Source: Candidatus Omnitrophota bacterium
GTDB taxonomy: Bacteria > Omnitrophota > Gorgyraeia > Duberdicusellales > 4484-171
Length of the DNA stretch: 64,000 nucleotides
Assembly: GCA_041652815.1 (NCBI GenBank)
Contig: JBAZGN010000002.1
Location: 8,209-72,208, forward strand
Direction: 5' to 3'
Every line of letters starts with the position of its first letter. Position 1 is the first letter of the stretch. Below are positions 13,147 through 64,000 of this stretch, piece after piece. The notes beneath the pieces are model-generated. The model was not told where the DNA came from. It saw nothing but the letters and a program-made list of their open reading frames with translations, and made no database searches. A program made the position numbers and the translations under genes.

Positions 13147-13163
13147 AAAACAGGCAATATTTC

Positions 13164-21600: not shown

Positions 21601-24600
21601 AAGGGAATTAAATATGCGTATAATCTGGATACCCTGCTGGAGCGATTGAAAAAAGCCGCAGCGACACTGCCCTTAACGGCTTCGTTTGAAAGTACAATTG
21701 TTCTCACGCCCAATGTCAGCGTAATTGAAGTACCGGGAGTTGGCGAGTGTAAATTTGTATCTGAATATGACATTTTAACCGGAAAAATCAAGATTTACTT
21801 TTTATTCGCCTTGGATGACGACGAAACGTTAGCTACCTGCTTACGCAGCACCCCACAGGAAGCTGATCATTTTCTTGTTACAGCTTTGCGTGATGAATTA
21901 CTACACGCTGCAGGATTAAACCAGCAACAAGCAGATAGTACAACTTTAGAGTGGTTGGCGCGGCCCGCCAGTCGAGATTATCTATGGGCTAATATTACCG
22001 TGCTAGATCCAGCCAATAAAAACAGTATGTATGCATTGGGAAGATGGTTTACGTATTTAGAGTCGAAAGAAGTAGGAACATTACGTGATAAAACCCGGAT
22101 TCAAAAATTAGACCAACGAATGACAGGGCTGATTGTTAATGATGTAGTTGAAGATAACCATATTTATCACGCAATAAGCAACTGTTGTCCTTGCCGGCAT
22201 AAATATGGTTATTACCATTATGGAAGAGAATACAACAGTTATTTCAATGTTATGGAAGCAGTTGAAACCGGGCCGACAGGAGCTGACTCTACAGACTTAG
22301 AACGGTATTATGGATATAGCATTCGTTACCGAACAAAAACAGAAAACATTAGAGAGATCCATTTCTCTGCAGCTAATTTTATTTGTGCCACTGTAAATAA
22401 CCTCAACCCGCCATTGGATGGAAGCAATCTTTGGGATGGCATAGAGAATTATAACTTGGTTGAATTTGTACTTTTTTCGCCGAAATTTTCCTCTACCCGT
22501 ATTACCCCTGTACAAGGTATGTGGTTATCGCGTTTCGCTAACATTAAAGATGATCGGATATTAGCTTATTGCGTTATGCACGCCCCGTATATTATTAGAA
22601 CATATGACAGTGATCAGGTCTGGGATGAATTCATTTCAGGATTAAAAGTAGAGGATTTACCAGAGAATTATCAAACTCTTAAAGTAAGTTCATCAATCGC
22701 TAATTGTGAGATAACAAGTGTAAAAAATAGAAAGTGGCAGATTCCAAGTGCAAGTTCTCCGGCAAGGTTAGAGGAATTAAAACGGAACACTAAGAGGCTC
22801 GAGTTAGAGCTTGATAAGATAGATAGTGCCATAGCCAGTGACAGATACAAAGAGCTAGGAGAAAGGCCATTTGAAGGTGTTGAGCAAGATAGCTGGCCTT
22901 ACCGTTATCTATCAACCTTGTTAGCCGAGTTAGGTAATTTACGCAGGTTAAGAATAACATTTGGTGTTGAGTTAAAAGAGGCCAGCAAGGAAATTTCTCA
23001 ATTAGAAAATCCGCCAACCACAAGCTCGCCGGTACCTTCTACACGACAGGCAATAGCTGATATTATAAATGCACGAGAAGCGGTTCGACAAAAATACAGT
23101 AAAGATGCAATTTCCTCAAGTGTTGAGCCTATTTTAAGCCATCTGATTCATGGAAAGTGGGAGATAAACAAAGCTGAAAATGCAGATGCGGTTTATCTGA
23201 AGGGAGATTTGTATTATCGGGACCAGCTAATCGGTTCTGTAGGGAGGAAGAGAGAATCGCAAGGAATACTTATAGATGCAATCGGTTGCGCTATTTATGT
23301 GTGCCATGATGTAAAAATGAACTTACATACATTAGATTTGGCAAAAGAGTTTGCTGCCAGAAGCTATCTGATAGGGTATTTAATCGGCAAAGCTTTGGGG
23401 TTTAATCCCAAGTGGGCATTGGCTTACTATGTGATTACTGCAATTGATTATCAAAGAGATGATCAGATGAGTACGCCTCATACTGGCTTAATAGTTACAA
23501 TGCGTAGAGAATGGGGGAAGCTTGCTACCTCATTAGGATTCAATAAAGGCGAAAAGGATGACCGGCTTGCTGAATTTGATAGGCGAATAAGAAGTAAGAT
23601 TGGGCCAAGCGATGAATTTGGCTATAGGTATTATGACTTTTATAAGTTTGTCCGTGATGTATCGCGCGAGTGGATAAGATGGTTTTATCTGGACAGGGCT
23701 CTGGGTTTTTATGCTCAGAGAGATGTTTCGGACGATGGCCTTCTTGTCCGAATGGGATTTGATGGCAGCTGGCAAGGTGTAAGAAAGCAGTTACAACTAA
23801 GCCTCGAAGAAGAGTTCAGCCAGTTAAATTTAGGCCCAATCCCAGAGCAGGTTTTTACAGGAGTAGACGCAGCAGAGAGCGTAAGCTCGCCTGTTAATGT
23901 AGAGGAGCAGATTAAACAATCAGACAGATTACGAGGATTGGTTATTCCATTAATTGAAGGTATTACTGAGGCTGCCGAAGAATGGTCAGCGTTAGAGAGG
24001 AACGGTTTGGAAGATGAAGCATTAACAGCTAGCCTTAAGTATGCTTACAGGTGTTTAATCTATGCAAGAGATGAATTAGTCCAAATGCAGCAGGATTTAC
24101 AACAGCTTCGTAATGATTTAGAGGCAGGCATTCGTGAGGCAACAAGAGAATTAATGGGGGGTATAATGCCGGCTGAAGAGCATGAAACTTGGTGGAATTT
24201 TGTTATTAAATATACTGAAGAACGTATTGAAGGAATCGAAAAACTATTAGCAGAATTAAACCAGCTTCATCAGATTATACTGAACGTTGCCCAACGGGAA
24301 AATAAAGGCACAGGCTCATCGGCGGTTGCAGCCCGTGCTCAACGGTCGATAGCCAATATTGACGCAGTTGCAGCAAACAGCAGCGCATCTTCGGATGATA
24401 GGTTGCCATTGGTTGAAACGCGCAAAAGCCTTACCTATATATATAGAGGACTGGAAGGTAATAGTTTTAACCCAAGAGGCTCCAGCCCGATAAGTGATGA
24501 TGAATTTAGAGTTCAACTTGGAGAAGATTATTCGCTATGGTTAGCGCAATTCCTAAGCGGCATTAAAGAAGAAGTTGCGCGTCTTATCATTAGCCATTGG

Positions 24601-27600
24601 AATATTTTTAGACGGATACTGCATCCGCACTATCGCCAGGTACAAAAATTGCTGGAAACATCAGAAGATAACCGTCCACGCTTTACCGAACGCGGCCAGA
24701 CTAGTTTTGTGACAAGAGACGTTACGGACGGAGAGATATATGAAAGAGACATATTTGACGTTGTTTGGTTTCAAGTTCCTAAGTTTGTTTCGTGGCCTGA
24801 AAGTATTTGGAAAATTTTTATTGGTACCCTTACCGTTACCACGGCAGATAAAATAATAAGGCAAGGCGGCGCAAGCTCGCCGTTGACAGAGCACCAGAGC
24901 ACTAGCGCACCAGCCTCCAGTAGAAAGACGAGAGACGAGAGACCAACGACGAATGACGTTCTATCAGCAGGTAGCAGTGCGGTAATAAATAACGAGTTAC
25001 CGTTAGTTGGAATAAGAAGTAGCCTTACCCCTATATATATAGGTAATGCGAGAAATATTCACAGCCCAAGAGCGCCGCCAGCGAGTTCACCGCTATTACC
25101 GGGCGCAAGTTCGCCTGCAGGATTTGATGTTAGGGGCGAAGAGTTCAGGCAAAGAAGAAAGGAATTAGTGCGTAATCTCGAAGCAGTGCAAGGAAATATA
25201 CGTAAAACCGAATGGGAAATTCAAAAATTAGAGGGAATAATTTCTACGCGCAGAGATTCGCGCGTTTTAGTAGAGAGAAAAGCAGCACTGAGATTAGAAT
25301 TAAGGAATTTGCTGGCTTACGAGCAACAGTTGCAAAGTATTTGGGCAGAGTTAGCCGAAGAGTTTCAAGAGTTGCAAAAAATAACCCATCTTCAACATAT
25401 TGCAGATATATTACGCCAGTTGCCATCGTTTGAGGGAAGAAGAGACGCTGATAGTGACGCAGGAAGCTCGCCGGTTGCAGACGGCTTTATCAGTGAAAAA
25501 CAGAGAGACAATATTGCCACTGCAATCAGGCGGATGTATCATTCAAGCGCTACAGAAGTTATCCCTTGGATTATTCGGATACAGTCATTAATCGCCCCCC
25601 TTAAGTTAAAACTTAGCGTAGATGCAAAATACGAAAATTTAACCGAACAAATTTCCACAATAGAAATTAAATTGAATAATATATTCCTCGGTCCCCAAGG
25701 CCTAAACCGCCTGCATAAAGACGTTAAAATTGGAACAAGTTTTCTTAACCCGCCAGCGGTAGTTGAAGTTGCTGATTGGAGAGAGCGTTTCGATGCAATT
25801 ATTAGAGATGTAGAAGCTATGGAAAGCGAAATGTCCGGCATATTTAAGCAGCATTCTGATGTCAAAGTAATACAGCAACGCAAAGATGAAACATTGCGAT
25901 ACTTTGGTGTGTTGTCGTACATACTTAAAAGCAGCAGGGCTCTTTTTGACGGCAAACGTAGTAAACAAAAAGTTTCTTTGGCCGTGCTTGAGGCAATAAT
26001 CAAAAAAGCCGCAATTCATGGAGCAGCAGAGAATGTGCATATTATTAATAACATAAAAGGCAGAAATGTTGTTGTTAGCTTAGAGCTTTTGGAATTTGAA
26101 AATATAATTTCTAATTTAGTAACTAATGCGCGGGAAGCACAGGAAAACGATACCCAGAAACGTAAGCTAATTGTAATAGGTATTAATATAAATAAAGGTA
26201 AACTTGTGGTGTATGTGGCGGATATCGGCCCAGGTATAGAAAAAGACAAATTGAAATGTAGTAATTATGATAAATGGCCAGTCATAACCGGTTTAAACAT
26301 TTCAACCAAGAATGTTCATACTGACGGGCATTTTGATGTGGCTGTTGATGAATTTGATAATATACGCGGGTTAGGATTGGCAGAACTTCGTGTATTCCAG
26401 AAAGATGTTGGGGAAAATGGCAAGCGTACGATACGCACTATTTCTCGAGGAAAACTTTTAGGGAAAATCCCGAAAAGCCTTGTTAGAAACCTTGCCAAAG
26501 GCAGGCGTGATGTTCGCGGTACGACTATAGCCGTATATATCCCTGTTGAACATTCCGGACGCAGAAAAACAAGCAGCCCTCTATCGGCAAGCCATAACCA
26601 ACTTACATATTCAGAAAAAGAAAATAATCCCGCGGCAAGCAGTTCCCCTGTTTACGACCACAACTTGGTTTTAGACCAAGTTCAATTAAGGGGCCTTTAT
26701 GAAGCCCAAATGAAAGGTAACTGGGGTCTCATTCAGGGTCGTCAGGCAGAACTGCAGGCAACTATGCTACGTGATGTCGCAAATTCCTGGAATATTTTCC
26801 AGGGAAATGATTATTCCATCAAACCGCTTTTCGATATGAATAATCCTTTGGCGCAGTCCCATACCCTCGAAAAGCAGGAATGCGTAAAATATAATCTTTA
26901 CAAAGTTAACGCTGAAGGTAAATCCACCGGCCATTTAACCGAATTCGATGATAAATCCGAAGCTTCTACCGCCGGCATTCGGGCTTTTATCAATCTTTTG
27001 TTCAGCCATGACCCCAATAAAATGTATAACGACAGGTTCTTGGCCATACTTATCGAAGCCGAAGCGCAATTCTTACGCGAAGTCCATGCCAAGCTTCGTA
27101 CTCAGTTTCCTCAGGATGATGCCGGAGTAATTGAACTTGCCACCAGGCTGCGCCATGAAATGCCTGAACAGGCTACAAGGGTTATTGAGGAAATTTACGA
27201 AAGGCCTCTTGAGGAAATTATCCCGTTTCTACGAGACAATGTGGTTAAGCTCGTGGGAGGAGAAGTAAGAGTACATACAGCTAAGTTTGTAGAGATGGAA
27301 ACACGCATGCTGGCTTCTCACGGCATCTATACTATCACTTTGCCCCGTTATACCGATAGTGTCACAATTTATATGTTCAGCTTCCTTACCTTTATATTAG
27401 GAGCCTGCGGTGCTACCCACTATACTTCAAGCCACAGCGCTAACTATCTCTACGGCCGAAAAGTCCTTGCGCCGGACGGCTCGCAGCTTTTACCCGATGT
27501 TTACGAGCGTTACCGCCAAATCTTACGTAAGATTATCGTTGATAAAATCTATAATGGAGAAGGCTATTCCCTGAATATGGCTTCTCTGAACGACCCTCAT

Positions 27601-30600
27601 ATTATGCGCACCCTTACTTATGAGCGTATGGCAAAACTCTACGCACCCATATTGAACATAAGCCGTGCCGATATCGAACGCATTAATGAAGCTACCAAAG
27701 CTGGCCACCGCATCGTGCTTAATTGCTTAAATGGTTCAACCTATAAGACCCTTATACCGATATTAAAAGAGTTAGGCATCGACTCAAGCGTTTTTATTCC
27801 GGTTAATGCAGAAGAGAGCAGATTCTTTAATGCCGGCTATATGGTGCTTATGGATAAGGAAGGCTATCATAAAATAGAACATTTAGGTGTCGATACAACT
27901 TTAGCTAAAGTTGTGCGCACTATTCCTTATGCCGCAATTTTGGCTAATGAACCTATCGGCAGAAAAGTCTATGAAAAAGACCCGGATTCAGACCGCTTTG
28001 TCCTAAAGCAGATTGTTCCCAATACCCCGGCCCAACAGGCAGTCTTTGCCGAATACGGGCTTACCAGTTATAAACTCGATAACGAACGCTCTCTTGTTGC
28101 GCCTTCTCCCAACAAAACGTTCCTGATCCTTGATATTGTTGATTTTGAGCGTATGGAGCAAGCCGGCACCTGGGCGGATTATCTCTCGCTCTACTTTATC
28201 ACCTATGTATCTACCAACGCTTGGGTGGAATTTGCTAAGGCTATCGAGGGATTACAGGCGGTTATGGCCATGGTTGGTTATAAGAACTTAACCGCATTGC
28301 AGCGGGCGATAGAAGATTGGTATTTTGGCTTACCGCACGAATCCACATTTACCCTGATAGACCAATTAGGCAATCGTATTGTCTTAGAACGCGGGAAATT
28401 CAATAAGTTACGTGTCCACTCTAAAGAGGAAGAAAGCGGTGGCCGAGTTGCCGGAACTGCAGAAGCCGTCACCAACGTTATAGGCCAGAAAGTACTGGCT
28501 ATGCCGGAAAAAAGCGCCGCTGATTCGTTGGTTGCAGAATTGGCGTTTTCTTCAACCCACTATCTTACAAATGGCGGTATGGAGGGTACATATTCTTTTA
28601 CTACCTTCATGGATAGCGCCTTCAAACGCTATAAACTCGTCTCCAAAATAGATAAACGTATTGACATAGAGCATGGCCAGCAAGGGATTATTGCCCAAAT
28701 GATGTATGAGGAACAACAGGCAGCGCTTGCCCGTTGCAAAGCCATTAAGACCAACTTCAATAACTTCTTCTTCTCTTTAGGTAAAGCAGTGCGTGATGGG
28801 ACTATCGACATTCCTGCGGCACGCAGGATTCTTACCGAGGTTATGCCTAAATACCGTGATACCTGGCAGGCGCTTCGTGCCATGACGCTTACCGAAGAAG
28901 AAGTAGCCGGCGGAAAGACCCGTCCCGAAGGCGTACCGATGTACTTTGAAACTGTCGAAGGCCAATCTAAACCATTGGTTACCAAATTCGCTTTCCGTCC
29001 CTCAGGCACCGACCCCTTAAAGAGCAAAGTCTATTTTGATGCCGAGCAAGTTCCAGCTGGCCTTAAGGAAGAATTTGAAGCTTATTTTATTGCGCTTACC
29101 AATTATGATCTTTACGCAGTCCTTGCACACTTTGGTATTGTGCCTATCGTGTCAAAACCGGAAAATATCGTCGAAGCAGCCCAAAAGCTGGACGAAGTCA
29201 GCCTTAAAACACTGACTTTAGATATTGGCCCGCAGGTTGAGGTAAGTTCGCCATCGGCTGAGGGAGCAGAAGAGAAACCAGAGAATGATTCTATAGTATT
29301 TACTGCACGTTCACAAAGCGGAGAGTTAATTGGTTACAGCTTAAATAATGTTCACGGCCATAAAATGCCGGCCACATTTGGCGATAACTACGATATTATT
29401 TGGAATGCCCGCCGAGATGAACTCGAAGTTTATGTCAACGCACACAGCATGCATACTTATATGGTTAATCTTGCTGATGGCAGGCCGCTATGGGATGTTC
29501 GTGAAACAGATATATCTATTCGCGAATATGTAACAGGGGTATGGAAAGAAGCCAGCTCGCCAGCATCCCAGCGGCTCGCTCCTTTCTTTGATAAGTATGG
29601 AATAAATTCTAAAGACAAAGAAGCCGTTATCTTAGCGGCAATTGAATTGAGGGAATCGCTGATAACCTTGAAAAAGCCGGTTAAATGGATGCCGGTTTAC
29701 AAACTCAACAAAACTCTTTTTGCCGGCAAGCCGGTTGTTACGGTCTATAGGTGCGAAGTGGCTGGTCAGGAATTAAACTATGCCATATTTGATTTTAAGA
29801 ATGACAAGAAAGCGCTGCTTCTATTTTTTCTGCAAGGCTATAGTGGCCTTTCAGTCGAAGACCAGCTAGAGGTACGAAGAGTATTGAATATTAAGGATGA
29901 GGATATGGGAAATCTTAATTATCCAGGCCTTGAACAAGCATGGTTTGTTGATTATCCGCAGGATGAATTAGAAACTATTGCGTCGCTGCAGGAGATGCGT
30001 CCAGCGGGAATGATTTCCGGAAGGGATATTCTTGCCAAGAGATTAGAACCTGCGTTAAAACAACAGATAAGAGAACTTACTGTTGGATACTGGAGCCCTG
30101 AAAGTTTACAGCGGCATAATGTCCCGGCAAGGTTAAGCAGCTTTATTGGGCAGCACGTAGGTATAAACGCTGAAGTGCCGGAGATTGATCGTGCTTTTGA
30201 TAAGTTATTTGATTTAAGCCAAGAGGAACAATTAAAATATTTTCCGGATATTATATTTTGGCTTGCGTGGATTGTTGCACGGGGCCACAGCGGATTATTG
30301 CAAAAGTTTGTCTATACCTTAAATCAGGATTCCGGCCAGCTTACCCGCCAACAACAATTTCTGCAATTAGCGCCGCAAGCATGGGAGTTACATTTTAGGG
30401 GTGGCTTAAAGGGTTTACTATTAGACCTAATTTCCCTGCACACGATAGCTACTCCAAAGATTCTTCGTTTGGTAAATGAGGCCATTTCATTATCCAAAGC
30501 CGCAAATGGCACCAGTTCCCCAGCCACAGAAAGCCGCCAGAGCGCTCCTTCGACTTGGTTCGACCTCGTCCTTCGGCAAGCCCAGGACTTCGCTCACCAC

Positions 30601-33600
30601 AGGCCGCTTAGGACAAGCAGTGCACTAGTTGCCAGCAATGGCGCAAGCTCGCCGACACTAACCACAAATCACGATGCACTGCAATACGCTGAACTTGAAT
30701 CTATCCTTTTACCAATCAGGCCGGTTAATCCCTGGGCAGCTTCTGCTTATAGCCGGCCAAGAAAGATTAACCCTACGTCTCGAAAGATAAAAGATGCCCT
30801 CAATACAGTGCCAGATATCCTTCTACGGTGCAAACCTATTGAGCCAGATTTGGTGCAGCCGGCGCTGCAAATGTTAGATAGATATGGCCACCTCGGCACT
30901 AGCCAACTCTTGGATGAACTATCCTCAACCCATAAAGGCCGTACCCTGCCTTTGGTGCTAATTGTTCCGCATGATTTATTAGAGGCCAATAATGCTTTAA
31001 AGGGTATTTTTAGCAGGGCCTTCGTGGTAGTTGGTTTTACTATTGAAGCTAATCCCGAGCCTTATATCCTTTTAGCCCCTGACCTCATTACCCGCAACCG
31101 CCGTGAATTAACTCCTACTTTAGTCTATGCGGCAGAATATGCATGGCGCACACCGCGCGGTTCAACATCACAAGAGGCGCATAACTTAGCAACGATTCTT
31201 GAATCTGCGGTTCGAAGGTTAATAAGAAACGAAAAACTACCCACTAAAAATCCGACAGAGGCAAGCACAAGCTCGCCGGTTACTTCAGAAATCATTCCTT
31301 CCAAAACCATTCTTTTTGGCATATCCGGCGGAGATTGCCCGGGGTTAAATGCCATACTTTCCGGCCTCTTGGAAAGCGCAACCGAAGCCGGTATCAGTGT
31401 CGCTACCATGGACGGAGGCTTTGAAACTCTTTGCGCAAAACCTGAAAAGTTTACTAAAGGATTACGGCTGGTTAATCCCGACGAAAAAGATGCCTTGAAA
31501 TACCTGCCTTCGATAATTTCCCGTTCTTCACGCGCTAAATTAGACGATAAAAATCAGGATAATGCCGTAGCTAACGGAAAAGATTTCTACGCTATATTTT
31601 TTGTGGGCGGAGATGACCACGCCCGCCAAGCTAAAAAATTAGCTGACCTTTTTGTAAAGCTTGGCATACAGGTCCCTATATTTATCGCCTTAAAAACTGT
31701 AGATGATGATACGGCTGCTCAAGCCATAGGCGCTCACACCGCTATAAGCCACGGGCGCCAGGATTTCTTATCTACCGCAATAACCACTTGGGCACATAGA
31801 AAGCTTTCTGTCGATGAAAATATGGGCAGAAACAGAGGTTGGATTACTATTCAGGCAGGAGATATGCGTTTGGGAGAACGCGATAAGAATTATCCAGAAA
31901 GAAAATGGATTTTAGCTCAAATTGGCCCAAGTATTGTCCAGCTTATTCCGGAAAAACCTTCTTACCTGGTAGACTTCCTGATTGAAACTGTTAATCGTAT
32001 GGGAGAAATTGAAACTTTATATGATGCAATGGTGAGGCCAATAGGCCAAAGGATTAGGCTTTATACTAATACTAATGCTTCTGAAGGTTATCAATTCAAG
32101 GATTTTTCACCTTTACATAGAAAGAAAAAAGATACTTTATTCTATAAGCTCCTTGCCTTAGATGAGTCGCTTAAGGCTGAATTTTATGCGGTAAAAGAAT
32201 ATGATGTCCATGGCAATCCCAAGTTAGTAGGATTGTCCAGATATATCGTATCAGCATTAAAATATTTACCGGAATTAGCCAGATACAACCAGCAGCTTAA
32301 GGCGGCGCTTGATATCCTTAAAGAGAAAATGCGGCAAGAAGGCGTAGCTGAAAAGTCACTTTTCGGTAAAGAAGAGCGCTACCATGGTATTGTTAAGTGG
32401 GTAAGAGAACTCTTAAGCCTGCCTACTGCGCTTACTATAATCTCAGGCGTACGCCACAATTTACCTAACTATATAATTAGAGGACAATCTCCAGATGAAG
32501 AAGACAAAACTTATGGTGTTAATATTGGCCATTATGGTTTTAGGGCTATACAATTAGCAAGAAGGCAGATTAGCAGAGGAAGGCCGCTTACTTTAACCGG
32601 TTATGTCGTAACGGTGCATAGAGGGGCAAATCTTTTAAGCGCTAAACCTATGCTTATGCAGGCGAAGGATGCCGCTAAGGGAGTTGATGTTACGACAGTT
32701 TATAGCGATGAGGATTTAAAAAGTATGGGAGTGTGGTGGAAGGAATCCGCAAGTTCAGCGGCAGCACAAGTTGTAAACAGAAATGATACCCTGCGGCAGA
32801 AAATCTCCGGCTTAGATAACGAAATCACCAGGCTAAGAACCGTATTAACCTCTTTACAGAGAGAACTAAACAAATTGTTATCGCAAAAGCCTTCCAATTT
32901 CCCCGGAGAAATTTTATTGGCCCTAAGCACATTAAATAGAGTCCGCGCTGAGCTATCGTTACTGGAAAGAATCAGGGCTCATCTTGAGGCAGCAAACCAC
33001 GGCAGAAAATATACGCCTAATCCGGCATATCTGATTCCAGGCACAGGGTATAGGGCGGTAAACGGAAGCCATCGTATCCCGGGCGCAAGCTCACCGTTGA
33101 CAGAGTACCAGGCTATCAGGCTACCTGCTACCAGCAAGAATGCCGGTTTTTCACCGCTAACCACTAGCCGCTATTCGCCATGCGCTAATGTAGGCAGTAG
33201 CGTAGCGATAAATAGAAAATTGCCGTTAGTTGTAATACAAGACAGCTTTACCTATATATATAGGGAGCAAGTGATCGATAACCATAACCCAAGAGGGTCG
33301 CCGGCATTTCCCATAATTATTACCAGTGGCTTCGAATTAACCCACGGTTTAGTCAGTGAAGCCGACATTGATGCCAAGGCTGTTTTTATCCACCCTTATT
33401 TCTTTTCGGCTGATGTATCGTGGTTAGAGATATTACGTCTTGAACGCCAATGCCAACAAAGGCAGGAAGATAAATTAAATAGGTTGCGTAGAGAAGTCGG
33501 TAGTAGAGAAAAACCATCCGGCTCTTCACCACTTAAAAAAGCCCTCGTCCTTGATTGTGATGGTGTACTCTGGGAGGGAATAGTAGCTGAAGATGGTATT

Positions 33601-36600
33601 GAGGGTATTCTACTTTCCCCTATGCATATAGAGTTTCAGAAAAAAGTAAAAACCTTCAAAGAAGAAGGCGCCCTTTTGGCAATAAACAGCAAAAATGACC
33701 CTGAAGATGTTTTGGCAGTATTGGATAATCATCCTGAAATGGTTTTGAGAAGGGAAGATTTCGCTGCCATGAGAATAAACTGGCAGAAAAAAACTACTAA
33801 TTTGAGAGAAATTGCAAAGGAATTAAATATCGGCATTGATAGTTTAGTATTTCTAGATGATAGTCCTCAAGAGAGAGAGTTAGTTCGGATGAGTTGTCCA
33901 GAAGTTGTAACGGTTGATTTAACCAGTAGACCTTCAGCTCGCCTGCAACAAATAGAGGAATTAAGCATTTTATTTTCTCAAGTAACAGTGACTGCTGAAG
34001 ATAAGAAAAGAACACCTCTTATTGCCATTCAGAGACAAAGAGAGCAACTAAAAGAACAAGCAGCATCTCTCGAGGGTTATTATCGCTCTTTGAAAATGAA
34101 GGTTATTGTTCGAGAAGGAAATGAGAATGTAGTTTATGTTTCTCGCATATCTCAATTAACTCAGAGAACTAATCAGTTTAATCTTACAGGCTATAGATAT
34201 ACCGAGGAAGAAATTCGAAGGTTGTTGCGAAATCCTGATTATGCAATATTTACAGTAGAGCTTGAAGACAAATTTGGTAACGATGGTATTGTGGGGGTAA
34301 TGATACTTTTTAGAACAAGCGGGACACAGTTCAATATAGATACCTTTTGTTTAAGTTGTAGAGCCTTGGGAAGGATGGTGGAAGTGGCATTCTTTGGCTC
34401 AGTGGTAAACAGATTAAGAGAACGGCGAGTTGGAGTTCGTATTTTGAGGGGTTATTATAATAGAATGAAGAGAAACAGGATGGTGGCTGATCTTTTCCAC
34501 CAGTTTGGTTTTAAAAGCGAACCGTTTAAACCGTTGTTGCATCTATATTGCTCATATAGCGAAAAATTCAAAGATGCAAAGAGCTGGAGCGTTGATTTAG
34601 AAAATGTTTTTCTTATGGTTCCTTGGTGGATAAGTGTTTATCAGAAAAAGGGAAATAGGTTCAGGCCTATTAAATTTGGACCGGAACCAGAAAGTAGCCA
34701 TGATGATAAAGTAGCTCAATATAAGAATAGTGTGAAAGGTATAGAAATGACGGTTAGGCTGGGAGGGGATAGTTACCACCATAACATAATAGGTAAAGTT
34801 GACACATCTGAATTTGATCGTTTCCCCCCACAATTAGAAGATTTTTCGGGAAACAAAAGATTATTTAAAATGTTGTTGGATATAGAAATTTCCTTTAGCT
34901 ATCTTGCTTTTGAGTTGGAATGGCTTAATACCATACAAGACGGCACATGCCCTGATTACGGAATGGAATTTTTCATGAGCTGGTATAATTTACATTTTTA
35001 TTTGGTTTCTCCCATTATGCATACAATCATACAAGATGGGGAAGAGTTTGAGCGTTTTACCAAGGCATTTCATAACTTTTGTATGCAGAATAGCGAAAGT
35101 TTAGCTTTATTATCTTGTGCTTTGCTGGGTCGCCCTTGTGATTATCATCGAAATTTTAAACGAGATAGAGTAAGGCTTCTACTAATGAATATTTATAGCG
35201 ATTACCGTCAAGAAAAGGTTGACCATTGGGCAAAACATTTTGAGTTTTCAACTTATTTGGAATTGTCAAACAGAACTTCAAGTCCCAGCGCTTACCCCGG
35301 TCATACCAGGTTGGGTCATATCAAATGTTTGTTATGGAAAAACCACAATATTAATCTTGCTGATGGCAGGCCGCTATGGGATGTTCGTGAAACAGATATA
35401 TCTATTCGCGAATATGTAACAGAGGTATGGAAAGAAGCCAGCTCGCCAGCATCCCAGCGGCTCGCTCCTTTCTTTAATAAATATAAAATAAATTCTAAAG
35501 ACAGAGAAGCCGTTATTTTAGCGGCAATTGTTTCGTCGGCAGTCACAGATTCCATATTAATTAAAGAATACAAGGAAAATACAAGCTCGCCGATTGCATT
35601 TCCGTTTTCAACCACCACTAAATCCTTGCCGTCGAAAAGCGATGTATTTAAGGCGCTTAGTGGAATACGAATGGGCGATAGCCGATTTGTTTTTGTAGCT
35701 AATAAAGAAATTTTATCTCCGGCGTTAGACTTTTTATATCACAGCGGAGAAGCTGCAGCAGGAGAATACCTCGAAGCAATAATGGCTGGGCATAGAATTC
35801 TTGCTCCGCCGCAAGAAATGCTTGAACAAAATCCAGATTTACAGAAAATTTTAGGCGACATAGACGCTATAGTCTATCGCGATAAAGGGAAAGATTGGAT
35901 TTTCCTTGCCTCTTCTCTGTCTACCGGCAATAAACTCAGGTTGAAAGCATCTTTAATTTACGGTTCCGTAATAGCCAGGCAATTATCTGAGCTTTCTTTT
36001 ACCACCAGAGAATTGTACAGAGATAATTATGATGAGATTAATACTTACGCCTCAAGGTTAGCGCGCTTTAGTATGTATGCTTACATAGCCGGACCTACCC
36101 ACTATAGCAGGCATAGTGATAAAGATGATCAGGTATTCGTTATATCTAAAGAGGGCGGTTTAGCTTTTTATACTAACGGTAACCGCAGCGGTCAGCATCT
36201 TTTCCATAAGTATCCTTTTAATTCAGCAATTACTTTTAGCCAATCGCAATGGATTACTACTGATTTAGCAATCAAGCTAATCGCCAGTTATTTTGACGCT
36301 AAAGATACGCATTGGTTAGCTGTATCTGCTTTGGTCGGCAATAGGCCTGTTACCGGTTTATTAGTTTATGGAGAAAATAATTTTAAAGTTAAACACGGCC
36401 GGCAGGAGCAAGAATTAGAAGCATTGATAGCAGGAATATTATTTGACCTTATTAAGGTACGCCAGGCAAGCGTTTTATCCTTTCAATACCCCGTTATCAC
36501 CAATAATACCGTCGAAATAGAAACACAAAATATACCCGACAGATATAGGCAAAACACCCAACGTTTAGCGCAATTGATGAAATCAGAATCCTGGCCGCCG

Positions 36601-39600
36601 TTTTTAATCAAGATAGAACCCCGTTTTGTGGATATTCGTTTAGGTGTTGGCGGAAAAGCTTCGTTGGCCCCTTTGAATAGGAGCATTCCGAGAGGAAAAC
36701 TGTTTAAGAGTGTGCAGCAAAATGCTGTAGAGGTTCAGCAAATTTCCAGCTCAATAGAATCGTCTTTCAACGATATAAGCAGAGCCGCGACAACCGTGGC
36801 GTCCGGCTCTGCTGTTTTCTTTACAAAAGTTGCAGATGGCTCAGGGTTCGCCTCCCCACTACGAGCGTCTGCAATTTTTGGTTCTTCGCGCCATGCCGGA
36901 TTTTTCATTCCTTTAGTCCCAGCCTCCGCAAGCCCGGCTATACCAGATGTAAGCAGGCGCCAGAGGTCACGAATGAATAATATGTTGTTACGGTTGGCAA
37001 TATTAGAGCAAATCTCTGCACAAGATAAGCTCACGCAAACAGATAGAGCAGTGGAAGAGGGCAATTTATTAAGTACTTTAGGTGAGTTAAGTGCGTTACA
37101 AGCCCGCGCGCCACCGAAAAAGTTATCTGAAAAAGCAAATTGTTATTTATCCAAACGCAAAGTCCATATACGAGAATTAGAGAGAGGCCGCTATAGCCAA
37201 TCGCACCATTTATCACGTTTATACGGTTTGGGAAAAGTTTCCTACAAACTAAACATTTATTTAAGCACTAGGCTTATTTCAAAAGCTATCGACAGGGTTT
37301 CCTCAAGCCTCGTTTCGGTTCCAGAGGGATTAGGCATCGCTAATCGTCGCGGGTTTATGATAAGTGTATTGAGTATGTTGACATTGGCTGCATTGGGCTG
37401 TAATAAAAGAAAAAATGCACCATCTCAGCAAAAAGCAAATAATCAGCCTGCAAAAGCTGAAACGAAGGTGCTTTCCGAAGAAGAAGTTAGAACAGAAATC
37501 ATTAAGCGATTAAAACTTTTGAATAAGCAGGAGGCCGAATATTTTTATTTAAGCTTAGTGGTTATAAGTATGATTATTTCCGGCCCCCCGGGAACTACTA
37601 TTAATCCTTCCAAGATGCTTGTAAAAACTATCAATGAAGGAAAACTTGTGATCTATAAGGTTGACAGAGAAGAAATGCGGATAATTTATGCTCTATTATA
37701 TTCTATCGGCCAAGGCGAAGCAATAAATGAGAATGCCGAGGTTGAAGGGGTAACTATTTATTCGGATAACCCTGAAAATCCTTACATTGTTGTTTTGAAT
37801 GAAAAAATCTTTGATAATGCTACCGAAACATTAGCAATATTTATTCACGAATTAGCTGGGCATGCTGCTTACAAGATTGCCGGCAAGCAATATCAACATT
37901 ATAGCCATGAAGAGATTGATGCCTATGGCGCGGAGATTGGCGTATTAGAATTATTGCAGAAAGAAGAAGGAAGAACAGGCCTTATCAAGGTAATTTCTAG
38001 AAATTTAGCCGGAAAGGTATCTCCGGCCGCACTTGAATGGTTAAAGAAAGCTTTAGACCCCGAAGAACTTGCACGAGTTATTGAGCAAGCAAAGAAGCAC
38101 AGGCAGCGATATCGCGATATTCTCAAAAATCAAAGCCTTTTGATTCCTCAGGGAAGATTTCAAGCGGTTCATAGCGTTAATAACTCATTTAGCGGCAAGG
38201 ATAGCGACACGCTTCTATCAGCAATTCAAGAACAAACCCTAGGCTTTACCTCTCAAAACGCCATGCGCCATGCGCTATACGCTATGCGAAACACCGCCTC
38301 CTCAAGCCCTCTGTTTGTTCCGGATTTTATAGCCACTGCTGTCGAAGAAATGGTTGACGCATACAAAGCAAAAATTAATGCTGCGAATATTTATCAAATG
38401 CATTTATTGATATTAGTAGATTCAGCACCATTCTTGGAAAGTTTTTGTGCGCTTAGCGGCGAAGGACCGTTTATTACCAAGCTTAGTGAGCCGTTGCCAG
38501 AAGATGCAGCTCATAAATTAGGGCCAACGCTTACTGCAGTAACGTCCAAGCTAATGGAAATTCCCCAAGAGCAGCGCGGTGAGATCTGGGTTATTAGAAT
38601 TCTTCCTATCGCAGAAAGGCCGTTTGAATATCCTATTGAATTAGATCGAAAAATCAAAGCTAGCCAAAGTCCAACTATTATTTTTATTGCGCCGAATTCA
38701 ACACTAAGAGAAAATTTAAGATTCATTGAATACATCCGGTCTGTCAATCAATTCGGCGAAGCAAAGGCTATATTAGTGACTGATAATCCCGAAGTCTTTC
38801 TTGCGCTTCAGGATTATAGGGCCGGCACCGATCAACTAATGGCGGACCGTATGGGTATGCGTCCTTACGACCTTCGTAAAGAAATTCTTACTAAGCCATC
38901 TGATTCACAAACAGATCCCGCCTCCTCAAGCCCAAGTATGTCCCGCCGCGCATTTTTGGGAGGAATGGTAAGCGCAATAGCATCAGGAAAATTTTTATCC
39001 GCTGCCGAACCTACGCCAATTGGCGCTGCCTCAAAAGACGTCGAATATTATAAATTTGATAACCCCGACTTTAAGACTAAAGAAGGCGAGGTAAATGTTG
39101 CCGTTAAACCTGCCACATACCCTTTAACGAGGGTGGTAGAGGTTGGTTCGCTCGCCGAAATTATCAGTATGCATCCTGAGTTTCCTATGCATAAGGTGAA
39201 TAAAGAATTCTTGCAGGCACATCGTATTTATAGAATAAAAGGAACAAACATATTCCATATAGAATTCGTTGATGAAGTCTTTATGAAGTTTTTCAATGGC
39301 GGCGAAGTATTTTCTATGAGTGCAGATGAGTTTGCGCAAAAGTTTAATGCAGCAAATGAAGCGGTTAACAGAGGCAAAGACGGTATAATCGGCTATATAA
39401 CAAAAGAGCTTAATTTAGCTATCGCCGGACAGCAATTAGCTGATGAACTTGCAGGAAGATTGCCGCGCTACTTGGCCGCGTTAGAGTTTGATTTATGCTC
39501 TTTGGGTATACTTCAACGCAGTAAGGATAAATGGCGGTTTATTTTAAGCGGTAAAAAGACAACGGCAATTATGGGGTCGAACGTTTGGGTTCCTGTCAAA

Positions 39601-42600
39601 CCAAGGACAGTTGGTTTACGCAGGGCTTTTAACTTGGGATTTTTTGTTTCCGACAAACAATACGAAAATTATGTGCGGCGCATCTGGCAGGACAGATTTA
39701 GCGCCAATCAGAGAGGCAGGCTGCGCAATTTTATAGCAGTGATTTTAAGCCAGAATCTCGATAGTAAAGAAGCCGCACGCTTAGGCGATGAGATTAAAGG
39801 TTGGAACGACGATAAGATTTTGTCTCAACTGGTCCTTTATTTTACCGATATGCTTGTAGGAGGCTCTGTTGGCGTCGACAGTGGGGTTAGCCTTGAGGAT
39901 AGAAAGCTGGCATTTCAGATGAGTGTTGAACTTGGGCAGAACGAACCCGCTATTTTGGACAAAAATAAGCACGCCCGCTATGATGCAAATTATGACAAAG
40001 ATATTGTAACTGCACGAAAGAGAACGAAATTGGAAAAATCACAACCGCAACAGTCGCCTAAAGGTAAAGACAGCTTCCGTTTAGAGTCGCAGTCAAAGAG
40101 CTTATCATCGTCTCCTACGGAAGAATCGCCAGAAGTGGATTTAAGATATGCAAATTTCTTTCTAGAGCCAGGGAGGATAGTAAATTGTCTTGCTATGGGG
40201 CCTAAACCGCACACAAAATTTTTAGTAGCCTGGGAACAAGAAATCCAAATAGTTAATCAACAATTAGAAATTACGCCTACCGATTTCAGCCTGCCAGCTG
40301 AATTAGGCAAACTTATTCTTCCTTACCGGTTTGCGTCAAGCCCGTTATCACCGAATGTTGATAGTGCTAATCTTTTCCGCAGATTTAAGCAGATGGCTTT
40401 TGAGCTTCGGTATAGGATGAGAGGAAACGAATTCGAACCAGCCTGGAGAGGACGAGCTTTCCAACTCAAAAAAGATTTAGAATATTTTCTGGCTGCCCAT
40501 AGTGAATTGGAAAAATCCAAAAGTGAAATTAACAGAATGAGAGCCAAGCTAAATATATCCATACAAGCAGTAAAGGATAAAACCGGATTAAAGGCAATAG
40601 CAGTGAATAACGATGCTATTAAATGGCATATGCCAGAGATGAATGAATTCCAACTTCTGCTTGATTCCTATCGCAAGCAGTATGCCAACGCAAGGTTTTT
40701 ATATCAGTCTTTTTATAGCTCTTATAGAAGCTTAAGAAATGAAATGACAGAAGCGCTGAACAGGGCTTTGCCTCTGGTTGTGGAGGCAGAAGAAAGCATA
40801 GATGCCTCTATTGGTGAAGAGTTAAGCGGGTTTTATGAAACAATACGGATAGCAATGGGTATCTTTTCTGACCTTGAAGAAATGAGGGCTAGGTTAGAGA
40901 AAGGCCCCAATGAAGATTATTTAGCAGGAGGGTTAAGGGCTGAATATGAAAATGAGGATGGCGTATTGAATTTTACTTATATAGAGCCTGCCCAGCAGCC
41001 TATAGATGAAGGTGAAATGTGGTGGTCCTTAAGATACAAGCTTGTTTACTCATGGTGGAAATTTCTATCTTATAGTTCAGCTGAATTTGCGAACTCTTGG
41101 GCCGAGTCAGCAGAAACTCCTTCTATCTGGCCATTTCAAATGGCTAGAACTTTATTAGAAGATATTGAAAAACGTTTAGCCGGGGTTAACAAAAAAAGAA
41201 ATAATTTCGCTCACCATACAGTTAAAGAAAGCGCTTATGCTGATTTGTCAGAGTTAGCAGCCAAGATAAGAAAGAAATGGCCTAAACAAATAGTTGAGCT
41301 CACCCAAGAAGAACTTAGTATTTTAAAATCTATCATTGACGAGTTAGAAAAGGAAAAAGGCGCAATATCTAAAGCTTATCGTTCAGGAAAAATGAAAAAA
41401 TTTGATGACGAAGTATGGGTATATATTGGAAACCTTTACAGATTAACTGAAATTAATAGGGATAACGCTGTAGGAGCTATCTTGGCACCAGTTGTTTTTC
41501 CTAATATTGGATTGAACTCAAGCTATTTAGAACGGGAAGAGCATGAGTCGGTGGAAATGATTTTCGGTATTGATGAAACTAATTTAAATTACGCTGTGAT
41601 GCGTGTAAAGAGCAATTTTGGTTTACGCGCTAAATCAAGAGCATTTGCTGATTATAAACAAACGCATCGCAACGTAATAGCTTTATTACACACAATCCTC
41701 GGGCAGAAAAGAATTGTTCTGGTAATGAATTTCAATGGAGAACGTAATATTATCGATATTCAGGCAACTCTTGAGCTTGACGATAATGATAATTCTGCTG
41801 CTTCGCCTGTTGCCTTTGGCGGCAATTCAGATGCCATAGGTAAGGCCGCCTCAAGCCCCATCGCGAAAGCGGCTGTGCACAAGCGCTATACTGTTACCAA
41901 TCTTGAGATTGGCGCAAAACCTACAGTTAATCCTTACGGAGATGGCAAGGTGCCCTTGGAACGGTTAGTTTCAGGAGCGTTTCTGCCCGGCTGTTATAAG
42001 GCGTTACTGCCACAAGGCATAGCTTCTACGCTTCCCGAAGTAATTACGCGGCATATTCGTGAACGGGCGATGGCTGCCGCAATTAAAGACCCAGAAGTAA
42101 GAGATGATGATGATAAGAGATGCCTTGCGGTTATGCTAAACAGTATAGAGCAATTAGCGAGAGCCATAGCAGAAACCGTTACGCAAAGGCAAGAGCCATA
42201 TACGCGAATAGTGCTTTTTGGCGGGGTTACAGAATATGCAGGAAAATTTTATTACAATAGGCTGCAAGCAAAAGTTGAAGAATTTTTATCCAAAGGCCGA
42301 ACCGTCGAAATTGTTCTTTCTTCTATGGGCAATGCTCGAGCAATTATCGGTGCTGTGGCTAATAGCCTTTTTGTTACCGGTTCTGCCCAGACTACCAAGA
42401 AATATGCCGCAGGGGTAGATTTAGGAGGAACAAACATCAGGGCCGGCTTGGTAAATTTAGAGGCAATGCAGGTAGAAGGGCCTATCGAGAAAGGCCCGGT
42501 CTTACCGGATGATGAGAGTAGAGCCGGCATGGTTAAGATAAGCCGGAAGCTTCAGGACAACTCCTTAGGAATGGATTTTGATAGTTTACCTTCTGATTTA

Positions 42601-45600
42601 GAGGTTTTCTTGCCGGATGCCAAAGATAGAGCGCTGCATCAAGAGCTTACTGCGAAATTATTAAGCCAGCTGAAATCTGTTATTGGCATGCTTGATTTAA
42701 CCCAAGTGGCATCTGTGAGTATTGGCGCACCAGGAATCTTTCCTGAACAAGGGCCGGTTAAACTTGCCTATAATCTTCCTACAACCAGAGTTGATGTTTC
42801 CGGTTTATTGGGCAGCCACTTTTCCTTACCTATATATATGGGCAATGACGTTAGCTGCGCAGGTGTAGGTGAAATTGTATCCGGAGCCGGCAAAGGGCAT
42901 AAGATGATTTTCGCTCTTAATGTAGGCACTGGCCTTAATATGTCTTTGGTCGAGGAAGCTTCCTCAAGCCCTACAGTGCATTCTTATGGCCTTTTTGTGG
43001 GAGATATGATTTATCCTCATAAAATAGGACAAGAGCTTCCCACAAGCTATAGAGATATTAAAAGGGAAGAAAAAGACAACGCGATGATAGTTGTTCCCAT
43101 TGAGTGGATTGAATGGATGCTGGGAGAGCTTAAAAAGAAAGGAGTCATTCCGAGCACTAATTTTGGCGGACCAGCCAATGCTACTACCTCTATTTTAGCA
43201 GTCTTAGGAGATAATGTAATTTTGGTTGCTCCTTATGGAGATGATGAACCGGGCTATCAGAATATGGTGTATCTTGGGCGCATTGGCGTGGATACCCGGT
43301 TTATGCCGTTTCTCGGTAAAAAGATAATGAGCGCCGCTAATCTGATTAGGAATTTACAAATTGGCGTTGATAAAAGTGGTAACGAGGTTTATGCCAAGGA
43401 CTATGCACTTTCACTTGACCCCATCCTCGGTTTTGCCTATTCACAATCGCGCGCCTTGGACACACTTACCCAAGGTGATATTGTTCATTTAGGAGGCATG
43501 GACCTTGTCTTATCTTCTCAGGAAGAAAAAATTCCAGAATTTTATCAAGCCGCCATTAGTGAGATGGTTAGAGTTGCAGCAGGAGCAAAGCAAAGAGGCG
43601 CCTTGGTGGTAGCTGATTTTTGTATGGGAGACCCGCTTTTCTGGAAGACGGTGCCGGATAGTTTCTTTAAGAATGTTGATGTAGTGAAACCGAGCGTTGA
43701 CCAGGCAATTGGTATCTATAACAGCCGTCATCAGCACAAGCTCGTGCTTGACCCCCGTGATAAAAGCGTGCTTTTTACAAAATATAGTAGTGAGCTTCTC
43801 AATATTCAGCGTTTCTTGTTGGAATTAGGATTTGGTGCAGTTTTTATGACTCTGGATGTGAGCGGAACCATTATCTCAGCAGGAGAAAATAGTATTTTTG
43901 GCAAAGTAGAACCAGAACACATACCGATTGTCCCGGCAAGAAAATTTGTTGATGGCACAGGTTGTGGCGATGGCTTTGTGTCAGGGATGATCCATAGTAT
44001 GTTGAACAAGTGGAATATGCGCCGCGCTGTTCAATTTGCTACCTTAATTGGAAGCCTTATTGCTGAGCGGCCAGGAGTCACTATCGAAGAAGAGTATTTA
44101 GGGAAAGGCAAATGGTTACCTGTTGTCGAGGCACGCTTAGCAGAGGTTGTTGCCTCTTCAAGCCCCACCCCCAATGTAAGTAGAGAGGAGAGAGGAGAGA
44201 GTAAAGAGATAAAAAGAATAATGAGCGAAGGGGGTAGGACGTGGAACGTAGAGCATAGAGCGAAAAGCTATCGAGTGTCATCTCCAACAACATATAAGTC
44301 ACGCCTTAGGAGATTACTCGAAAATTCGAGTCTAGAAAAATGTTTCATCGATAAGCTCCTTGGCGCTGTCGCACGTAAAAAAGATGCTCAAAGGATTGGC
44401 GCAGCCTTTATCTCTTTGGTTGATTCTTTCACAGTTGCAGGAGTAGAGATGGAGCATATCGGCAGCATTATTGATGCTATCGCAGGCAAAAAAGACGCTC
44501 AAGGGTCCGCCGTAAGATTACAAGCGGCGGGAACTCCTGAAATATTCGCCGGCCTTCAGAGCTCGCTTACCAACGAAGGAGAATACCTATATCAGGGTGA
44601 GATCTTTGAAGTCATCGCACGCAAAAAAGATGCTCGAGAGATTGCCGAGGCCTTTATTCCCATCGTCGATTCCCTGAGGGTTGAAACGATAGACATAACT
44701 AACGTTGTTTATTTTGAGTATTGTGTAGAGGGTATTCTTCGAGCCATCGCAGGCAAAAAAGACGCTCCAAAGAATGCCAAGAAGATATCATACATTGCTA
44801 GTAAATTACAGAGGCATGTATTGCAAACTAAAGAGAGAGAGTCTAGGCAGAGAAAAGTTAAGGGAGAATTTAGTCGTAGCTTAGGGTATTTTCCAGATGG
44901 GGGTAGCTTTTTTGTAGTTTCCTATAGGATGGGCTATTACATCGTCCTTACCAATACCCATGTGGTACATACAGCAAGACAACTTCGACTTCTTACCCAT
45001 ACAGGCGAGGAAATAGGCATTGCTAAGGTAGGTATACACAATAGAGAACCGCATCTTTCTAAGGATGGCGATATCGCACTCCTGATTATTCACCATAATG
45101 ATGTAAAGTTAGAGCCACTTTCGGATAAGCATTCAGATGGTAAACCGGTTAAGCTTAAACCACTTCCTTTGGTTCCCTTTGAAGAAGGGGAATTTGCTAC
45201 TTTGATAAGCGGAAATAACGACATTATCTCCAGCGGCCTGCTTGGCAGGATAGGAGATACTGTAGCGCTATTGGGTGGGTTTACAGAACCAGGAGACAGT
45301 GGTTCTCCCTATGTTGTTGAACGCAAAGGAGGCCTCTGTGTGGCAGCCATACATGCACAGTTAGGCCCTATAGGGATGCTGCTTAATGAAAAAATGAAAG
45401 CTGAAATGTTAAGGGCTTTAGAGGAAGATACTTCAGATATCTTTGAAGCAAATCCAATTTCTCAAGAAGAAAAGTTAGCATCCCGCTTATTCTTAGAAAC
45501 TATTCCAACTTCCGCCTCCTCAAGCCCGGCTTCTGAAAAGTGGAAACCGGAGATAACTTATGATATCGAAGGCTGGGAGAATATTGAACGCGTATTAGCT

Positions 45601-63999: not shown

Positions 64000-64000
64000 G

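Follow-up and report, generated by a model that had tools for sequence, protein, structure and literature searches.

The stretch of DNA analysed here (hereafter the window) comprises 64,000 nucleotides (nt) of contig JBAZGN010000002.1, positions 8,209 to 72,208, from a Candidatus Omnitrophota bacterium, and within it a palindromic word of 14 bp, CCTATATATATAGG, recurs far more often than expected. We consider it probable, at roughly 0.6, that this palindrome is a codon shadow, cast by a conserved peptide core in a linker cassette that lies between domains and has been duplicated inside a giant gene of the Omnitrophota type. Following this interpretation, the peptide S-[LF]-T-[YP]-I-Y-[RI] would be the core of the cassette and the motif its nucleotide footprint; the cassette has reached three copies by duplication within the gene and is shared with the giant gene of another Omnitrophota metagenome-assembled genome (MAG).

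Frame 1 of the forward strand contains 21,333 codons with 0 stops and is open at both ends of the window, and the remaining five frames carry 766-2,009 stops each. With the whole window taken up by one open frame, the list of open reading frames (ORFs) is nearly empty, and coding constraint acts on every copy of the motif, all of which lie in this single ORF. Exact copies of the 14-mer are found only at 25030-25043 and 33251-33264; two further sites differ by one mismatch (24434-24447, which ends in AGA, and 42829-42842, which ends in TATGGG) and one by two mismatches (58153-58166). An earlier inspection of the letters alone, the sequence-only reading, had reported a perfect 14-bp palindrome at four or more sites: the recurrence above chance is real, but the palindrome is exact only at 25030 and 33251. 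The places that it indicated can be recognised, although its coordinates are off by one or two bases, and the degenerate copy that it saw at 58153-58166 is present.

Allowing up to two mismatches, CCTATATATATAGG occurs at five sites of the window against 0.36 expected, and none of 100 dinucleotide shuffles reaches five. At the same dinucleotide level TATATATATA is seen three times with 0.17 expected, and the 19-mer CTTTACCTATATATATAGG, allowing up to three mismatches, has five sites (seven counting both strands) against 0.03. In an unbiased count of the 12-16-mers of the window, made outside the large internal duplications, the motif is one of the two words that recur most often. Perfect palindromes of at least 12 bp number 25, with about 22 expected, and those of at least 14 bp number 8, with 5.4 expected: it is the recurrence of the word that is unusual, not its symmetry. 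The longest perfect palindromes of the window, which also lie inside the ORF, measure 20 bp (ACAACTTTAGCTAAAGTTGT, 27895-27914) and 16 bp (AATCTTACGTAAGATT, 27519-27534). When the protein and the codon usage of the gene are both held fixed, TATATATATA is expected 0.30 times and seen three times (P ~0.001), so that the motif is enriched over codon-usage expectation, a comparison that the sequence-only reading had proposed; for the 14-mer the expectation is 0.05 and the observed number two. The chance of TATATATATA per site from codon usage alone is 3-11%, in a gene where TAT makes up 77% of the Tyr codons and ATA, the second Ile codon, 33% of the Ile codons.

Three of the five sites lie in paralogous copies of one cassette, all on the forward strand, as found by BLASTP and with a hidden Markov model (HMM). 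Of the explanations offered earlier, a feature of a repeated peptide module is the one that the evidence favours. Copy 1 (ANSSASSDDRLPLVETRKSLTYIYRGLEGNSFNPRGSSPISD; 24373..24498, amino acids (aa) 8125-8166; HMM and translation) has the core AGC CTT ACC TAT ATA TAT AGA at 24427-24447, which contains the one-mismatch 14-mer. Copy 2, delimited by BLASTP and alignment, has a long form running from GASSPLTE to ASSP (24868..25092, aa 8290-8364) and a 42-aa core (24967-25092, aa 8323-8364), in which the codons AGC CTT ACC CCT ATA TAT ATA GGT (25021-25044) include the first perfect 14-mer. Copy 3 (BLASTP and HMM) also has a long form from GASSPLTE onwards (33082..33315, aa 11028-11105) and a 42-aa core (33190-33315, aa 11064-11105), with the second perfect 14-mer in the codons AGC TTT ACC TAT ATA TAT AGG (33244-33264). 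The upstream extension starting with GASSPLTE characterises the long form (~70-80 aa) of copies 2 and 3, and over GASSPLTE.Q these two copies are the same at 28 of 30 nt, next to segments that are unalignable.

Compared with each other by BLASTP, copies 2 and 3 share 44% identity over 78 aa (E 1.7e-10) and copies 1 and 3 share 36% over 61 aa (E 2.7e-4), and the cassette HMM run against all 21,333 aa recovers exactly these three places, with 76-85 bits. The consensus, over 42-80 aa, is GSSAV.N..LPLV..R.S[LF]T[YP]IY[RI]....N.H[NS]PR[GA].P..SSP; its 42-aa block, [AV]-x-S-S-…-L-P-L-V-x-x-[RQ]-x-S-[LF]-T-[YP]-I-Y-[RI]-…-[NS]-P-R-[GA]-…-P, has 13 invariant residues, which fall outside the TA core (for example LPLV, SS and PR) as well as inside it. 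The PLV context noted in the sequence-only reading was correctly seen, since LPLV precedes exactly the sites at 24434, 25030 and 33251. Each cassette lies between catalytic domains, in sequence rich in Ser and Pro, and SSP (SP in copy 3) follows 13-19 residues after YIY. The linker-like context that had been ascribed to the sites in general applies to the three cassette sites, but the site at 42829 is inside a ROK kinase domain. No Pfam family covers aa 8125-8166, 8323-8364 or 11064-11105, and nearby there are only weak matches of coiled-coil type (E >0.01). The copies are not recent DNA duplicates, because other invariant residues (SS, L, P, L) vary freely in their synonymous codons.

It had also been stated that every site encodes L-T-(Y/P)-I-Y-I, which is not the case: the translations differ and fall in two codon registers. 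Copies 1 and 3 read S-[LF]-T-Y-I-Y-R and their palindrome begins at codon position 2, whereas copy 2 reads S-L-T-P-I-Y-I-G with the palindrome at codon position 1, so that its 14-mer is shifted by +2 nt with respect to the codon alignment of the other two. Tyr-Ile-Tyr written in TAT and ATA codons gives (TA)5, which like every run of (TA)n is its own complement; the codons on either side, ACC (Thr) or CCT (Pro) before it and AGG (Arg) or GGT (Gly) after it, supply the CC...GG ends. As (TA)n encodes Tyr-Ile-Tyr-Ile in every frame, copy 2 can retain this DNA with its register moved by 2 nt (YIYR to PIYI). The simplest route to this state would be a compensated pair of indels, an insertion of CC (+2) before the run and a deletion of two nucleotides (-2) just after it, and selection is not needed to account for copy 2; the gapped alignment has three mismatches and two 2-nt indels, the ungapped one eight mismatches.

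The two remaining sites are of another kind. Site 4 (42826..42842, forward strand) is TTA CCT ATA TAT ATG GGC, L-P-I-Y-M-G, inside the ROK domain (aa 14221-14312), and site 5 (58150..58166, forward strand) is TTA CCT ATT TAT ATA AGA, L-P-I-Y-I-R, in an unannotated protein context. Read more fully, the peptides are S-L-P-I-Y-M-G and A-L-P-I-Y-I-R, with the palindrome at codon position 1 in both. At 42829 the peptide SLPIYMGNDVSCAGVGE aligns with GLPVVVENDANAAAWGE of the solved glucokinase 3vgk and corresponds to a conserved ROK strand. Both sites were ruled out as copies of the cassette (cassette HMM, E >12). In shuffles of synonymous codons with the protein fixed, an exact TTACCTATATATAT appears outside the cassettes in 7% of cases, and at least two matches with no more than one mismatch in 8.5%. 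The sites at 42829 and 58153 need no explanation at the DNA level, as their own peptides and common codons suffice; LPIYM and LPIYI are unrelated peptides that share the same common codons by chance.

To find relatives of the cassette, a profile of its three copies was compared, with full HMMER, with 1.84 billion protein representatives, which gave one real match (P0001, E 1.9e-8). This protein is a giant-protein fragment of 6,706 aa, named at NCBI 'MAG: Candidatus Omnitrophota bacterium STA_84' (GCA_028713415.1), and its 90% cluster has a single member. It holds …SSAVVDRELLLAGMTNSLTYIYREPAVDNHSPRAPPVVSSP, its sequence …VGSSAVVDRELLLAGMTNSLTYIYREPAVDNHSPRAPPVVSSP… is a clear cassette, and the DNA at this place is AGC CTT ACC TAT ATA TAT AGG GAG, the exact 14-mer again. 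Conservation at synonymous positions in homologues had been put forward as a further check, and the sole homologue keeps the 14-mer unchanged. A second match of the profile (P0002) was rejected as spurious, being a low-complexity repeat protein judging by its sequence. Searches with the 300-aa region that holds copies 1 and 2 yielded no relative from a protein database of 5.8 billion clusters, from contigs representing one genome per GTDB species or from JGI metagenomes, and a profile of the four cassettes gave no match in the same 5.8-billion-cluster database even at E <=10. A degenerate DNA pattern without codon bias, S[LF]T[YP]IY[RI]x4[ND]x[FH][NS]PR[GA], recovered only the contig of the homologue among the genome contigs and had 0 matches in metagenome and viral contig collections.

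These results also bear on whether an AT-rich word could simply have recurred by chance. The sites at 42829 and 58153 are compatible with chance given their peptides, but the enrichment is strong under both the dinucleotide and the synonymous-codon shuffles, the peptides around the three main sites are demonstrably homologous and the motif is present again in the sole homologue. For the three cassette sites chance is already refuted by this enrichment, homology and recurrence, and as an account of the whole pattern it is hardly credible.

Between cassette copies 1 and 2 there is an unannotated segment, SSPISD[DE]E[FL]… (aa 8161-8290, nt 24481-24870). At least three starts of this type occur in the homologous protein (aa 518-653, 1187-1231 and 4037-4082), and the first 24 nt of the segment are 96% identical between both organisms; judging from these sequences, it may represent a family specific to these giant proteins.

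A different kind of repetition was observed in the contig of the homologue (L001), where positions 14492-14545 and 25238-25291, belonging to a full and a half cassette respectively, form an island of 54 nt with 53 of 54 identical. The island encodes …SSAVVDRE[LS]LLAGMT… and its flanks are unrelated; in the half cassette the SLTYIYREPAVD segment is replaced by RIADAIGRLINTPEVLS. It ends 8 nt before the 14-mer and 11 nt before the TA run. Identity so patchy suggests recombination or conversion of short tracts among linkers. One could then suppose that the linker islands (the motif, GGCGCAAGCTCNCCGTTGACAGAG and CCGCCTCCTCAAGCCC) are microhomology adapters by which domains are shuffled or homogenised, with the consequence that island DNA is kept identical and flanks diverge. 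The mosaic of DNA identity agrees with this proposal, namely the GASSPLTE.Q stretch of copies 2 and 3 beside segments that cannot be aligned, the 16-mer CCGCCTCCTCAAGCCC at 10 sites with unrelated flanks and the 53/54-nt stretch of the homologue that stops just short of the 14-mer where the SLTYIYREPAVD segment is replaced. However, gene conversion offers no explanation for identity between two different organisms, the full copies are similar on both sides of the motif, so that the motif is not at a breakpoint, and only one breakpoint near the motif was seen. Pfam scans of the window returned no recombinase, transposase or helix-turn-helix (HTH) domain, which also leaves without a partner the recombinase site considered in the sequence-only reading. 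We therefore judge a role of the motif as a junction for recombination or gene conversion to be unlikely, if slightly less so than the alternatives treated below.

The codon-shadow explanation has to be weighed against a group of observations that do not favour it. In the homologue LPLV is replaced by LLLA, and the exact 14-mer is nonetheless kept. The codons of the core S, T, I and Y are identical in 4/4 copies, including that of the other organism, and synonymous changes are found in 5/5 of the other invariant columns (S, S, L, L, P) against 0 of the core columns. Were codons chosen independently, the probability of finding the same seven in the homologue would be 6.5e-4. Copy 2 has undergone a radical change of peptide (Tyr to Pro, Arg to Ile), yet its 14-mer is perfect at the DNA level. 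Nucleotide identity of the cassette between the organisms is 72-75%, high for an amino-acid identity of ~50%, and the differences are evenly spread across codon positions (9, 10 and 12, for example, when copy 3 is compared with the homologue). Finally, a structure prediction with AlphaFold2 from the single sequence of aa 8090-8380, with no alignment, had a pLDDT of 36 and was uninformative.

Several points speak against a constraint at the level of the nucleotides. From the even spread over codon positions it follows that the flanks of the cassette evolve almost neutrally, at ~0.3-0.4 substitutions per site. The codon choices of the copies are not independent, because the copies are related by descent. 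Among the 15 residues invariant in the three copies of the window, eight keep identical codons against ~1.7 expected, and synonymous sites are therefore unsaturated throughout the cassette. By our rough estimate, based on a four-taxon tree of length ~1 and the equivalent of ~4.3 synonymous sites in the core, about 4-5 synonymous changes would be expected in the core and one (AGA/AGG) is seen, P ~0.06. The synonymous uniformity of the core is suggestive but no more than borderline (p ~0.05-0.1 by rough estimate), with four copies in all. The idea of a function at the DNA level is thus not refuted by the two tests proposed together with it, enrichment over codon usage and conservation of synonymous positions; yet the copies are related by descent and number four. 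Taking all explanations of this kind together, we regard a role at the level of the nucleic acid as possible but doubtful. If synonymous conservation of the TA core proved real in more genomes, it would point towards a nucleic-acid-level signal inside giant genes.

Under the codon-shadow explanation, instead, the cassette would act at the level of the protein. It would be a small structured element, made of two stretches prone to form beta strands (LPLVxI and SLTYIY) followed by PR[GA], and placed immediately before a domain boundary marked by SSP; such an arrangement suggests an element for docking or for recognition during processing. A pause of translation at rare codons was also considered and rejected, since the gene uses ATA (33%), AGA (34%) and AGG (20%) too often for them to count as rare.

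Another explanation at the level of the nucleic acid is a slippage switch. In this hypothesis (TA)5 would be a slip-prone tract, and gain or loss of one TA at replication, or a ribosomal slip of two nucleotides in either direction on UAUAUAUAUA, would lead to a nearby stop; the products would be truncated proteins ending at the linker, that is, shorter proteins from a giant gene. The TA core shows no variation at synonymous positions among four copies from two organisms, and at each copy of the cassette both +TA and -TA lead to a stop after 0-15 codons. In the +2 frame translation would stop at once, at the built-in TAG of TATATAG in copies 1 and 3 and in the homologue, and one codon later, at TAA, in copy 2; moreover the P-site and A-site tRNAs should re-pair perfectly on (TA)n after a shift of 2 nt. 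On the other hand, five dinucleotide units are short for a contingency tract, and (TA)5 occurs in all three copies of the window and in the homologue with no length variant. A quick stop is expected by chance, as frames other than the coding one encounter a stop at a median of 7-8 codons anyway, and the test of synonymous constraint is only borderline. RNA folding around all six sites gave z from -1.3 to +0.6, with no excess of stability, so that no stimulatory RNA structure accompanies the tract; programmed frameshifting does not fit either, as this structure is missing and reading in the alternative frames ends after 0-15 codons at the cassette copies. We thus consider a slippage switch improbable, and equally so its more elaborate version, in which (TA)5 together with the out-of-frame TAG would have been selected as a frame-proof slip site yielding a graded set of shorter multi-enzyme products. 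If a slip did occur, the cassette and the SSP motif would mark the points where the product of the giant gene is subdivided.

An internal promoter or operator was the first explanation given for the motif when only its letters had been considered, with the TA run as a -10-like or unwinding element or with TTACC-(TA)5-GGTAA as a palindromic site for a regulator. The motif is palindromic, and at 25030 an extended near-palindrome, TTACC-CC-(TA)5-GGTAA, can be drawn, with 16-nt arms of 81% complementarity there and at 42829. Direct reading also shows TTGAAA and TTGTAA 17 nt upstream of TATATA at copies 1 and 3, and sub-transcripts of giant genes are an open question in the literature on them. Yet the inverted arms TTACC…GGTAA are found only at 25030 and, imperfectly, at 42829, so both half-sites exist in 2/6 sites only. 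Scanning for promoters and terminators gave nothing at the motif sites: between 23500 and 34500 there are 19 sigma-70-like matches, fewer than the shuffle mean of 22.8, and 0/19 coincide with a motif site. TATATA is without the critical T at -7, the -35-like hexamer is missing in the homologue and at copy 2 (spacing >=19), and, as we read the sequence, a start codon that is in frame and has a ribosome-binding site does not consistently follow downstream. A promoter or operator is consequently very unlikely. A restriction site, also mentioned earlier, was discarded: the sites of restriction-modification systems are shorter than 14 bp, and the Pfam scans contain no domain of a restriction system.

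Taken as a whole, the window is part of a giant multi-enzyme gene like those described in Omnitrophota. Along its single ORF fragment (1..64000, forward strand; frame analysis and Pfam), over 20 domains of metabolic enzymes follow one another, for the most part of glycolysis, sugar and nucleotide kinases and glycogen synthase. Guanylate kinase is represented by three domains above the Pfam gathering cut-off and a fourth just below; the others comprise NUDIX, two starch synthases (GT5+GT1), PPDK_N with a PEP-utiliser domain, phosphofructokinase (PFK), ROK, PfkB, pyruvate kinase, metallophosphatase, HAD and ribulose-phosphate 3-epimerase. Weaker matches are HATPase_c, AAA_5 and a trypsin-like domain, of which HATPase_c and the trypsin-like domain are below the cut-off. 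Searching with the GT5 domain, the highest identity (52%) was with a partial Omnitrophica starch synthase; the domain was abandoned as a route to related giant genes, the two closest of the matches that were looked up being stand-alone glycogen synthase genes. Giant genes of Candidatus Omnitrophota have been described in classes such as 'Archaeovorin' and 'multi-enzyme metabolic cluster' (West-Roberts et al. 2023, bioRxiv 10.1101/2023.11.21.568195; bioRxiv 10.64898/2026.06.07.730766), and term searches of both preprints found no mention of the motif, the linker or the palindrome.

The same ORF contains other internal repeats. A duplication of ~2.5 kb (nt 8209-10710 and 13165-15666, aa 2737-3570 and 4389-5222) has 99-100% protein identity and sits in guanylate-kinase repeats of ~290 aa, in six units with 51-61% identity; it is either a very recent event or a collapse or expansion of the assembly. 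A 63-aa repeat, GRPLWDVRETDISIREYVT.VWKEASSPASQRLAPFF…, is found at aa 9819-9881 and again ~2,000 aa away at aa 11781-11843 (nt 29455-29643 and 35341-35529), with 87% identity.

The tripeptide SSP, which follows the cassettes, occurs 58 times in the window against ~4 expected, with the consensus [AG]-[SAT]-S-S-P-[LIVAT]; examples on the forward strand are at aa 5638, 10424, 16941, 17969, 19012, 20031 and 20432 (nt = 3 x aa - 2). None of the 58 is inside a Pfam envelope, with 9.3 expected, and 8 of 20 domains are preceded by an SSP at a distance of at most 45 aa from their start (P = 0.0004). Because both Ser positions use AGY and TCN codons, SSP is a motif of the protein. In the gene of the Omnitrophota homologue (L001, 9612-29729) it occurs 25 times against 1.5 expected. 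From its distribution in these two sequences, SSP is a candidate mark of domain boundaries, of processing or of modification in giant proteins, and term searches found no mention of it in either of the two giant-gene preprints.

Codon use at SSP has features of its own. The 16-mer CCGCCTCCTCAAGCCC, with no more than three mismatches, has ten sites on the forward strand (36920, 38294, 38918, 41843, 42956, 44150, 45512, 46214, 46811 and 50813), always in the same frame, and 0 on the minus strand. It encodes x-A-S-S-S-P with the same codons, GCC TCC TCA AGC CCx, between flanks otherwise unrelated, which shows uniformity at the DNA level in a subset of SSP boundaries clustered at nt 37-51 kb. Furthermore, one Ser of SSP has an AGY codon and the other a TCN codon, in either order, in 39/58 cases in the window and, by our own count, in 22/25 in the homologue, where ~49% would be expected; in SS dipeptides without a following P the two codon families are mixed in 33/98. 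The SSP boundary motif is probably of more interest than the palindrome, which as a by-product of a repeated peptide has by itself little weight, and the cassette together with [AG]-[SAT]-S-S-P-[LIVA] provides candidate positions at which semi-tryptic termini in proteomic data, or transcript ends, could be sought.

Considering known systems, the motif resembles simple-sequence contingency loci in being an in-frame (TA)n tract where a change of one unit leads to a nearby stop, but it differs from them because the tract has only 5 units, is of fixed length in all copies and encodes a conserved peptide. With sigma-70 -10 elements it shares the richness in TATA, whereas it fails the consensus scan and is without the -7 T, a conserved -35 or a downstream start. 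As to the gene, several features are in agreement with the giant genes of Omnitrophota: the stop-free ORF of at least 21,333 codons in the window, where tens of thousands of codons are typical, the presence of PF08323, PF00534, ROK, PPDK_N, NUDIX and HAD_2 in the domain lists of both preprints, and the origin of the sole cassette homologue from an Omnitrophota MAG; HATPase_c and AAA_5 are listed too, with weak matches in the window. West-Roberts et al. describe numerous transmembrane regions and a divergent SecA-DEAD domain in such genes; among the Pfam matches of this fragment there is neither SecA-DEAD nor C39.

The closest comparison for the cassette is with the Ser/Pro-rich linker modules found between domains: like them it is short and of low complexity, lies between catalytic domains, has been copied inside the gene and, apart from a small conserved core, changes rapidly in evolution. 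It is distinguished from them by the strict conservation of a hydrophobic-aromatic core (LPLV...SLTYIY) with PR[GA], and by having been kept in two organisms with giant genes that can otherwise hardly be aligned. The cassette belongs to the ordinary class of repeated linker modules, as a new and very rare member that is not annotated.

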